Of a stretch of DNA of 14,887 nt, positions 13,340 to 14,887 are shown piece by piece. Every line of letters starts with the position of its first letter. The first letter of the stretch is position 1. This stretch comes from a virus (lineage: Duplodnaviria > Heunggongvirae > Uroviricota > Caudoviricetes): positions 146,407 to 161,293 of IMG/VR virus record IMGVR_UViG_3300012269_000002. The stretch is one strand, 5' to 3'. The position numbers and the translations under genes are program-made. The notes beneath the pieces are model-generated. The model saw nothing but the letters and a program-made list of their open reading frames with translations, had not been told where the DNA came from and did not search any database.

Positions 13340-13420
13340 TTGATTATTACATTTTAATGTAGTATATTTGCAGTGTATTAAAAAATAAATGTACTTTTAA
13401 AGAAAAAGCACATATTTAAT
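13340..13420 (+). promoter_or_regulatory. Promoter region of tRNA array 2: Bacteroidota-type promoter plus TATTTAAT motif
   Basis: TTG 13340-13342, N20, TATATTTG 13363-13370; TATTTAAT 13413-13420. Confidence 0.8.
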
Positions 13421-13464
13421 TAAAAAGGATATTAATATCCATTAACGAATAAATAATAGAAATT

Positions 13465-13554
13465 ATGAAAACATTTAACAACATATTTGATTTTGCTATA
13501 GAAGCAGCCGAGGCGGATTTTAGCCTGGGGAGGTCGAGTATTGATAAAAGTTAA
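13465..13554 (+). CDS. Putative attenuator leader peptide 2 (Phe/Ala/Glu/Asp-rich), 29 aa
   Basis: MKTFNNIFDFAIEAAEADFSLGRSSIDKS; lies between the promoter and a terminator preceding tRNA-Ala/Phe/Phe/Glu. Confidence 0.75.
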   Translation: MKTFNNIFDFAIEAAEADFSLGRSSIDKS

Positions 13555-13585
13555 GTGTTCTAAAAAAACTAAATAACTAATTAAT

Positions 13586-13614
13586 AAACTCGATAGAAAT
13601 ATCGAGTTTTTTTT
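13586..13614 (+). terminator. Intrinsic terminator (attenuator) before tRNA array 2
   Basis: aaactcgata-gaaa-tatcgagttt plus U-tract. Confidence 0.9.
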
Positions 13615-13629
13615 GTTTTAATAATTAAT

Positions 13630-13702
13630 GGGGCTATAGTTTAATTGGCTAAAATAGGGGTTTTGCAAATCCCAGTCCTGAGTTCGATTCTCAGTAGCTC
13701 CA
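13630..13702 (+). tRNA. tRNA-Ala(TGC)
   Basis: Acceptor ggggcta/tagctcc with G3-U70, loop ttTGCaa, ctgag-ttcgatt-ctcag. Confidence 0.92.
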
Positions 13703-13717
13703 CTAAAGTAATAAATT

Positions 13718-13963
13718 ATGAAAGGAATTATAGATTGGAATGGTTTAACGATAGAACAATATATCGAACATTTAGAAGAAAAATTTATGTACGATTCAAG
13801 TGGTACAGCAAAAGCCGTATTTGAATTAATAAGTGCTTACAAAGTATTAGCTGAGTCACCTATTGTAGATTGTAAACATAAATCTGATTACACACCTTGT
13901 TATAATTCACAAGGGGAACTTATGTTCAAGCAATGTGATATTTGTGGGGGAGAATTTGATTAG
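13718..13963 (+). CDS. Hypothetical protein, 81 aa, C-terminal Cys cluster
   Basis: ORF between tRNAs; C-x-H...C...CDIC. Confidence 0.7.
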   Translation: MKGIIDWNGLTIEQYIEHLEEKFMYDSSGTAKAVFELISAYKVLAESPIVDCKHKSDYTPCYNSQGELMFKQCDICGGEFD

Positions 13964-13969
13964 TAATAA

Positions 13970-14042
13970 GGGGGTATAGCAAAGATGGTCTATGCGTTCG
14001 GCTGAAAACCGAAAGATGTTGGCTCGGTACCAACTGCCCTCA
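13970..14042 (+). tRNA. tRNA-Phe(GAA) with non-canonical T loop
   Basis: Acceptor gggggta/tgccctc, ttcgg-ctGAAaa-ccgaa; T loop CTCGGTA instead of TTCRANY. Confidence 0.78.
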
Positions 14043-14050
14043 CAAAACAA

Positions 14051-14076
14051 GGTACCTTAGCTCAGTTGGTAGAGCA
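14051..14076 (+). pseudogene. tRNA 5' fragment (acceptor strand + D arm) upstream of HNH gene
   Basis: ggtacct-ta-gctc-agttggta-gagc-a, D arm identical to that of tRNA-Phe at 14640; no downstream T arm. Confidence 0.65.
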
Positions 14077-14133
14077 CTTTGTAAAGATTAGTGTCACTTT
14101 TTTGTTTTTGTGATATTTATATAAAAAAGTATT

Positions 14134-14637
14134 ATGAAAATCGAAAAAGAAAAAATTAAAAATTTAGTAGAAGAGGGTCTTAATAATTCAGAGATTGCTG
14201 AAATAATAAATTGTCACAGGACAACTGTTCCAAAGAAGATGAAAAAATATGGAATAGAAAGACCAGAGAGTGATAACATTTGTTTGATTTGTGATAATGA
14301 AACCACATCGAGAAGAAATAGGTGTGATACATGTAACACTAAAATAAGAAGATACAGAGCTAAAAAAGCTGGTGTTGAATATTTGGGTTATAAGTGTAAT
14401 AGATGTGGTTGGTCTGGAGATTTATCTGGTTTTGATTTTCATCATATAGATGAAAAGAATTTTAATTTAGGTGCAGCTAAAATGGCGAACACAAAGTGGA
14501 AAGAAATTAAAAAAGAGTTAGATAAATGTGAGTTATTATGTGCATTATGTCATAGGTTAGAACATAGTGATTATGATAATGAAGTATTTTTGAAGATTGC
14601 CAATAAAAAAAGTGAAGATTTAATCTTCAAGGAATAA
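14134..14637 (+). CDS. HNH endonuclease with N-terminal HTH and zinc fingers
   Basis: GLNNSEIAEIINCHRTTV (HTH), CLIC/CDTC, KCNRCG...FDFHHID...CELLCALCHRLEH; TATTTATA at 14114-14121. Confidence 0.88.
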   Translation: MKIEKEKIKNLVEEGLNNSEIAEIINCHRTTVPKKMKKYGIERPESDNICLICDNETTSRRNRCDTCNTKIRRYRAKKAGVEYLGYKCNRCGWSGDLSGFDFHHIDEKNFNLGAAKMANTKWKEIKKELDKCELLCALCHRLEHSDYDNEVFLKIANKKSEDLIFKE

Positions 14638-14639
14638 TT

Positions 14640-14712
14640 GGTGAGGTAGCTCAGTTGGTAGAGCAACGGACTGAAAATCCGTGTGTCGTGGGTTCGAACC
14701 CCACCCTCACCA
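14640..14712 (+). tRNA. tRNA-Phe(GAA)
   Basis: Canonical cloverleaf: ggtgagg/cctcacc, acgga-ctGAAaa-tccgt, gtggg-ttcgaac-cccac. Confidence 0.95.
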
Positions 14713-14714
14713 CA

Positions 14715-14826
14715 AGTAGTTGTCGAAATGCCTTAGGGTAGTGATAATTAAGTTTATCGGCATTAGTGAGTTTTGCACAAAGTCGTGCATGTAATAAGGG
14801 CAAAAACAAATCCCTTTCCACCTACT
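14715..14826 (+). ncRNA. Candidate structured non-coding RNA between tRNA-Phe and tRNA-Glu
   Basis: Nested helices by eye: agtag/ctact, aatgcc/ggcatt enclosing gataa/ttatc, tgcac/gtgca, aaggg/ccctt. Confidence 0.4.
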
Positions 14827-14832
14827 AATTAT

Positions 14833-14887
14833 AGCCCTATCGACAAGCGGTTAAGTCATCACCCTTTCAAGGTGAAGTCACGGGTTC
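14833..14887 (+). tRNA. tRNA-Glu(TTC), truncated by window end
   Basis: agcccta-tc-gaca-agcggtta-agtc, tcacc-ctTTCaa-ggtga, start of T arm acggg-ttc. Confidence 0.85.

Follow-up and report, generated by a model that had tools for sequence, protein, structure and literature searches.

We report that the last 14,887 bases of a single viral contig (IMG/VR record IMGVR_UViG_3300012269_000002, 161,293 bp, 30.8% G+C; positions 146,407 to 161,293, hereafter "the window") carry a short unit, from window position 13340 onward, which we consider likely to be a ribosome-mediated transcription attenuator of the trp-operon style that gates a phage tRNA array. The unit combines a promoter, a 29-codon leader open reading frame (ORF) rich in Phe, Asp, Ala and Glu codons, and an intrinsic terminator, and it precedes tRNA genes in the order Ala-Phe-Phe-Glu. 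These parts, their conservation, the match between leader codons and tRNAs, the covarying complementarity between leader and terminator, and the geometry of the switch are all present in the DNA. From them we infer that the leader is translated, in which direction the switch works, and that tRNA supply is the signal.

In the proposed mechanism, transcription would begin at the Bacteroidota-type promoter (13340-13370) and a ribosome would translate the leader. If Phe-, Asp-, Ala- or Glu-tRNA were scarce, the ribosome would stall in codons 8-19 and leave the strand 13533-13545 free to pair with 13580-13594; the terminator would not form, and transcription would read through into tRNA-Ala, tRNA-Phe and tRNA-Glu. 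Under fast decoding, the ribosome would reach the stop codon (13552-13554) with its footprint over the antiterminator strand, the hairpin 13586-13609 would form, and transcription would end. The unit would act as a negative-feedback sensor of the charged-tRNA pool of the infected cell, inducing phage copies of the limiting tRNAs.

Leader codons and the tRNA genes behind them

The leader ORF starts 94 nt downstream of the -7 box. F, A, E and D make up 11 of the 12 residues at leader positions 8-19. Each of the four Ala codons and each of the two Glu codons appears, C and V are absent, and L occurs once. This composition, as well as the promoter at 13340-13370, the leader at 13465-13554, the GAAA-capped terminator and the tRNA-Ala at 13630, had been listed in a preliminary description of this DNA, and all were present on inspection. 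The attenuator reading given there also finds support, in matched leaders of paralogues and homologues, in covariation between antiterminator and terminator, and in a geometry of the trp type. In a survey of the whole genome (131,859 segments of 12 residues, 3,690 frames), segments with at least nine A, F or E residues were confined to this leader and one antisense frame, and at least 11 C, V or L residues were found only in the leader of another unit of the same genome, unit 1.

The genome carries three units of a common layout (Table 1): their promoters are of one type, their leaders start with MKT, and a terminator and then tRNA genes follow. Judged by their common promoter type and MKTxNNI start, units 1 and 2 (the studied unit) are paralogues that differ only in their sensing stretches; the two had been described as independent attenuators, and this part of the description does not stand. 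The leader of unit 3 precedes a 56-codon ORF and then tRNA genes for His, Trp, Ser, Asn, Ser, Met and Arg.

Homologous units were gathered by exact-pattern scans of IMG/VR and came from many unrelated contigs. Among these homologues, leaders of the F/D/A/E type always precede Phe, Glu, Asp and Ala tRNA genes, and leaders of the L/V/C type precede Cys, Val and Leu tRNA genes. Further classes comprise a leader with an ERREERE run, whose Arg codons are AGA, before Glu(TTC)-Arg(TCT) and, in the cultured Cellulophaga phage phi38:1, a K/T/I/M/D/R/G/V-rich leader before Lys-Ile-Gly-Met-Asp-Thr-Val-Arg and an S/N/F/Y-rich leader before Ser-Ser-Asn-Phe. The terminator is present in 14 of 14 distinct units, and each of the 14 leaders is enriched for the amino acids of its own array (binomial p 0.09 to 5e-7), with 123 cognate residues among the 182 in the sensing regions. 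Homologous units are not independent events, and the effective sample is the six classes, not the number of contigs; among the six class representatives, the true pairing of leaders with arrays ranks first of 720 permutations.

Within the F/D/A/E class, ORF length and frame are retained in 11 distinct relatives, the third codon position is the most variable, and the ORF was called as a gene by gene callers in four other assemblies. F, D, E or A fills 118 of the 121 cells at codons 8-18 of the 11 homologues. Replacements within this set include the radical changes from E to F (GAA to TTT/TTC, three nucleotide changes) and from A to D, as well as D to E. Because the replacements are confined to the set and yet chemically radical, they point to selection on which tRNA is called rather than on the chemistry of the peptide.

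Phage phi38:1 (KC821614.1), a 72.5-kb podovirus, carries two units with the layout and MKT start described here. They differ from the studied unit in that their leaders belong to other classes and their host genome is that of a podovirus. The first leader (approximately 35283-35360), that of the Lys-Ile-Gly-Met-Asp-Thr-Val-Arg array, is annotated as the hypothetical protein gp066 with a longer, upstream start (35253-35360); the second (approximately 36744-36833), that of the Ser-Ser-Asn-Phe array, is unannotated, and gp067 has been called there on the opposite strand (36714-36845). The T-runs of the two units lie at approximately 35,411 and 36,912. A third candidate leader, gp071 (38163-38294), was rejected as misannotated tRNA sequence. 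A published RNA-seq study of phi38:1 is silent on these units (PMC5335546). The distantly related cultured phages immuto (of Flavobacterium) and pT24 (of Tenacibaculum) gave three to four tRNA matches each and no leader unit.

Promoter, terminator and the predicted RNA switch

The promoter is of the Bacteroidota type, with a -33 TTG and a -7 TAnnTTTG. The pattern TTG-N17-21-TAnnTTTG occurs at most 160 nt upstream in 16 of the 20 candidate units with enough upstream sequence, and the genome background is 0.02 per 160 nt. We base the promoter call on this conservation and not on a scan for sigma-70-like hexamers in the window, which gave 85 matches versus 81.5 in shuffles and is uninformative alone. 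Since every unit has its own conserved promoter, the terminator does not merely end an upstream gene. An IS200/IS605 element ends approximately 40 nt upstream of the promoter; it is missing from the closest relative, L007, which retains the attenuator unit, and this likewise argues that the terminator does not serve an upstream gene. The 5' untranslated leader contains a 14-nt palindrome at 13427-13440.

The RNA from leader to terminator folds with -38.2 kcal/mol (z = -4.2), and all of 200 shuffles were less stable. The leader stop codon lies approximately 30 nt upstream of the terminator. In the antiterminator, gtcgagt (13533-13539) pairs with actcgat (13588-13594) in a core of 7 bp including one G-U, which is extended by 13540-13545 with 13580-13585 (attgat/attaat) across a 2-nt bulge, as had been proposed. 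When the window RNA was cut before the terminator 3' arm, 13580-13594 paired with 13533-13545, and the duplex between the terminator 5' arm and the leader reached -9.9 kcal/mol versus -5.5 +/- 1.4 for shuffles (p = 0.01). Folding of each unit without the terminator 3' arm placed the partner of the 5' arm near the 3' end of the leader ORF.

Spacer and terminator columns were out of register in the alignment, and covariation was therefore tested by permutation of duplex energies. Across the 14 units, duplexes between 5' arm and leader of the same unit averaged -11.5 kcal/mol versus -7.3 for swapped partners, and none of 20,000 permutations reached the observed value; within the F/D/A/E class, the averages were -10.7 and -8.4 kcal/mol (p = 0.002). 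The covariation is also visible by eye: TCGAGT/ACTCGA here corresponds to GTTGAGT/ACTCAAC in L006 and to GGTCAACCT/AGGTTGAC in L020 and L038. The codons beneath the antiterminator strand (S, S/T, I) are non-cognate, which fits a constraint at the RNA level.

Stalling was simulated with a ribosome footprint of -15 to +12 around the A site. Sequestration of the terminator 5' arm was 50-70% for A-site positions at codons 2-16, and the arm was almost wholly free for positions from codon 21 to the stop codon; most other units behaved alike. An RNAalifold consensus of nine homologues contains two small hairpins in the ORF (ORF nt 29-43 and 44-65), both also present in the minimum free energy (MFE) fold; base pair 33/39 is changed on both sides among homologues. 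These hairpins are possibly pause or timing elements. The MFE fold of the window RNA pairs ORF nt 6-33 with nt 66-95. A long-range helix between ORF nt 10-15 and 86-91 (13474-13479/13550-13555; xTTAAC in codons 4-5, GTTAAx in the stop region) is conserved in leaders of the F/D/A/E class and covaries at its outer pair, one pair only; it may account for the conservation of the NN codons and for the AGT TAA at the end of the ORF.

The tRNA array, its variants and the source genome

Table 1. Coordinates of the units, of the parts of the studied unit and of neighboring features (window positions unless another contig is named)
Feature	Position	Strand	Description
Unit 1	7414-7634		Promoter, 27-codon L/V/C-rich leader (7494-7577) and terminator, directly before tRNA-Cys, -Val, -Leu
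Unit 2 (studied unit)	13340 onward	+	F/D/A/E leader before Ala-Phe-Phe-Glu
Unit 3	L001 1010-1245 (genome 121509-121744)		Leader rich in H/W/S/N/M/R, reading MKTGNIHMSSINIWRRNS...
IS200/IS605 element	~11517-13300		TnpA 11566-11976 (-), TnpB 12093-13295; Pfam-confirmed
Promoter	13340-13370	+	TTGATT (13340-13345), 17-nt spacer, TATATTTG (13363-13370)
5' untranslated leader	13371-13464	+	A-rich ahead of the ATG; no Shine-Dalgarno sequence
Leader ORF	13465-13554	+	29 codons: MKTFNNI, sensing stretch, antiterminator-coding tail, TAA
Sensing stretch	13486-13521	+	Codons 8-19, FDFAIEAAEADF
Two small hairpins in the ORF	13493-13529	+	Consensus of homologues
Antiterminator 5' strand (region 2)	13533-13545	+	Within codons 23-27, 7-19 nt ahead of the stop codon
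Antiterminator 3' strand (region 3)	13580-13594	+	Overlaps the terminator 5' arm
Intrinsic terminator	13586-13619	+	10-bp stem (13586-13609), GAAA loop, T-run
tRNA-Ala(TGC)	13630-13703	+	First regulated gene, 11 nt past the T-run
81-codon ORF	13718-13963	+	No Pfam match; missing in a co-occurring variant
tRNA-Phe(GAA), first copy	13970-14043	+	
5' half of a tRNA	~14051-14090	+	Directly ahead of the HNH gene
HNH homing-endonuclease-like gene	14134-14637	+	HTH_38 and HNH matches, both slightly below Pfam cut-offs
tRNA-Phe(GAA), second copy	14640-14713	+	
tRNA-Glu(TTC)	14833-14887	+	Cut by the contig end; 3'-truncated match, identity by homology (full copies in L133-L137 and L007)

The contig stops one base short of a polymorphic site in tRNA-Glu, which is A in L133 and G in L137, and an independent assembly, L132, breaks at the identical place. 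The contig end looks like an assembly branch point.

The preliminary description had predicted a tRNA-Asp beyond the window. For the strain of the window, this did not hold: contigs 100% identical to the window (L134, L135, L138) contain no tRNA-Asp in at least 5.7 kb past tRNA-Glu. There, tRNA-Glu is followed by an odd 139-nt tRNA-like element, by protein genes including a Tpt1/KptA-like gene, and by a suppressor tRNA(CTA). The prediction did hold for L137, a 97.7% identical strain in which two tRNA-Asp(GTC) genes lie approximately 190-270 nt past tRNA-Glu; the order after Glu is tRNA(AAC), the tRNA-like element, the two tRNA-Asp(GTC) genes, a GIY-YIG gene and a second tRNA-Glu, after which the sequence rejoins the first form. 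It also held for L007 and for all more distant relatives of the F/D/A/E class whose array was readable. In the strain of the window, a recent deletion between the two copies of tRNA-Glu has probably removed the Asp genes, and this would have left the Asp codons of the leader with no matching phage tRNA. An exact IMG/VR scan for the spacer ahead of tRNA-Glu gave no match.

The 139-nt element (L133 3450-3588; also in L007 and L137) scores 31.5 bits with the Rfam tRNA model and has an insertion of approximately 60 nt in the D-loop region. It was considered as a disguised tRNA-Asp and rejected, as no GTC anticodon is readable. In L133, the gene for the Tpt1/KptA-like RNA 2'-phosphotransferase lies at 3958-4485 and the suppressor tRNA with anticodon CTA at 5812-5884.

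The arrays vary in other ways. A contig from a lake sample joins 13704 to 14634, so that tRNA-Ala nearly abuts the second tRNA-Phe with 31 other letters between them; the intervening 81-codon ORF, first tRNA-Phe and HNH gene are missing from this variant, and the array is thus polymorphic in the population. The arrays are rich in remnants and in genes for HNH endonucleases (GIY-YIG in relatives), and an odd tRNA-like stretch follows the second tRNA-Leu at 8995-9110. Four tRNAs of the third array (L001 1520-1590, 3045-3124, 5462-5553 and 5622-5695) have 6-nt anticodon loops in ARAGORN and are ambiguous in identity; they may have altered anticodon loops or be decaying genes.

The source phage is a myovirus. 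Its tail sheath is approximately 38% identical to the counterpart in Flavobacterium phage immuto, and its ribonucleotide reductase is approximately 50% identical to enzymes of Tenacibaculum and Cellulophaga phages. These similarities, together with the TAnnTTTG -7 box, indicate that the host is probably among the Flavobacteriia. A megablast search of GenBank phages with the region gave no match, and a sensitive blastn search of the same phages with the unit found tRNA-Ala genes only. The DNA of the window is present in several lake-water metagenomes, in which depth peaks and joints suggest several diverged copies of IS200/IS605. The genome also has a phage-encoded tmRNA predicted by ARAGORN (genome 109033-109394), and the window has a 432-residue ORF (1392-2690) with a PARP-type ADP-ribosyltransferase catalytic domain (Pfam E = 8e-20).

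Alternative explanations and comparison with known attenuators

Other explanations of the unit can be considered. The leader could be translated and the terminator switchable, with the unit sensing general translation capacity (ribosome availability or a global slowdown, as in systems of the ermC or pyrBI type) and the codon make-up being secondary. We consider this unlikely: the MKTxNNI N-terminus and the architecture are indeed common to all classes, each leader has several non-cognate codons, and the leader has Asp codons in a strain without tRNA-Asp, but a general sensor needs neither the six-class match of leaders with arrays nor replacements confined to the cognate set. In a pyrBI-like arrangement, moreover, the distance from the stop codon to the terminator would keep a coupled ribosome from blocking the hairpin directly. 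It is quite unlikely that the short ORFs are genes for small peptides with a function of their own (in the L/V/C class, for instance, membrane- or signal-like ones), with the hairpin as an ordinary, constitutively leaky terminator or a processing signal. The composition switches wholly between classes and tracks the tRNAs, the E-to-F and A-to-D replacements are tolerated within a class, and the 3' codons covary with the terminator arm while their amino acids are not retained. The annotators of phi38:1 and metagenome gene callers do list such ORFs as hypothetical proteins, and the unit 1 peptide resembles a lipoprotein signal peptide; however, neither a lipobox nor any other motif is conserved within the L/V/C class, and the signal-peptide reading of these leaders was rejected on this ground.

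The leader RNA might also sense tRNAs directly without translation, the codons serving as T-box-like specifiers that pair with anticodons and stabilize the antiterminator. Codons, a terminator/antiterminator pair and tRNA-related targets are indeed present. This explanation is very unlikely, since the conserved ATG, frame, length and TAA and the variation at third positions point to translation, and neither a T-box nor another Rfam family was matched at gathering or relaxed thresholds (for T-box RF00230, no match even at E <= 10 in 13300-13640). We know of no precedent for ten or more consecutive specifier codons. Finally, the unit could be a mere coincidence, in which a short ORF has arisen by chance between a sequence resembling a promoter and a terminator that stops transcripts running out of the insertion sequence. 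The sigma-70-like hexamers, whose frequency in the window is not raised over that in shuffles, and the nearby end of IS200/IS605 would suit this. The chance of it is negligible: the unit is conserved in relatives without the insertion sequence and in many distant contigs, the composition of the leader is extreme for the whole genome and the leader sits exactly before the matching tRNAs, and the pairing rank and the covariation within the class contradict a coincidence as well.

We favor ribosome-mediated attenuation, and several points weigh against it. Under strict wobble, the leader codons GCT and GCC (Ala), ATA, AGC, CTG and GGG are outside the reach of the anticodons of the array, and the tRNA-Asp genes are missing in the window strain. 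The antiterminator duplex is no stronger than that of shuffled sequence in the homologues L007, L049, L091 and L021. A 1:2 anti-antiterminator is conserved only in part, as the outer helix and the two inner hairpins, and untranslated RNA cut before the terminator 3' arm forms the antiterminator at equilibrium. Tight coupling of transcription and translation is not known from Bacteroidota. More tRNA does not help a cell that is starved of amino acids, and the signal must therefore be assumed to be a shortage of tRNA. None of the RNA sequencing runs contains the stretch; the best shares 0.05, probably through conserved tRNA words.

Phage tRNA genes are usually discussed as constitutive cargo that serves codon usage or anti-defense. 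An attenuator ahead of each array would make tRNA expression conditional and self-limiting, set by the decoding speed of the matching codons. Tentatively, and as one possibility, we propose that Bacteroidota phages carry a modular surveillance of the tRNA pool, in which each cassette is an autonomous feedback loop that audits the codons its tRNAs serve, and in which host tRNAs are replaced only when depleted, for instance through anticodon nucleases of the host, through host shut-off or through a mismatch in codons. If so, the attenuators would be inducible counter-defense switches as well as a natural programmable codon-specific sensor. Phage tRNAs as an answer to tRNA depletion could be tested in the cultured pair of phi38:1 and Cellulophaga baltica. 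Many small "hypothetical proteins" beside phage tRNA arrays would also be explained, and the cassettes would be compact, natural, codon-specific sensors with potential for reuse in engineering.

Multivalent attenuators are well known in enterobacteria: the ilvGMEDA leader senses Ile, Leu and Val and the thr leader senses Thr and Ile, in addition to trpL, hisL and pheL. The unit resembles them in its promoter-proximal short ORF rich in regulatory codons, its intrinsic terminator and the joint sensing of several amino acids; the 5' strand of the antiterminator also lies at the end of the ORF under the footprint of the terminating ribosome, and the spacing from stop codon to terminator is similar. 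In contrast, its targets are tRNA genes and not biosynthetic enzymes, it is viral and probably works in Bacteroidota, it has no clearly conserved 1:2 anti-antiterminator, and its useful signal must be a shortage of tRNA rather than of an amino acid. An Rfam scan found nothing at gathering thresholds; the covariance models gave 15.1 bits for Trp_leader RF00513 versus a cut-off of 41 (E = 2) and 13.6 for His_leader RF00514 versus 49 (E = 8.5).

A further comparable system is the pheM leader, which attenuates the pheST operon for phenylalanyl-tRNA synthetase in E. coli. A His leader precedes hisS paralogues in bacilli (PMC2965389). Like the unit, these are leader-peptide attenuators over a component of translation that answer to the charged level of a specific tRNA. 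They control synthetase genes and sense a single amino acid, whereas the unit controls the tRNAs themselves, responds to four amino acids and occurs as one of several differently tuned cassettes per genome. T-box riboswitches likewise use a terminator/antiterminator switch to make read-through depend on the state of a specific tRNA; however, they are untranslated and bind uncharged tRNA directly by a specifier codon and the T-box sequence, whereas the unit has neither motif and its ORF shows conservation of the coding type. Searches of the literature (open-access papers and preprints) turned up no report of tRNA genes controlled by a leader peptide. Leader-peptide attenuation, itself a well-known mechanism, would reach a new class of products, the tRNAs, as well as viruses and Bacteroidota.

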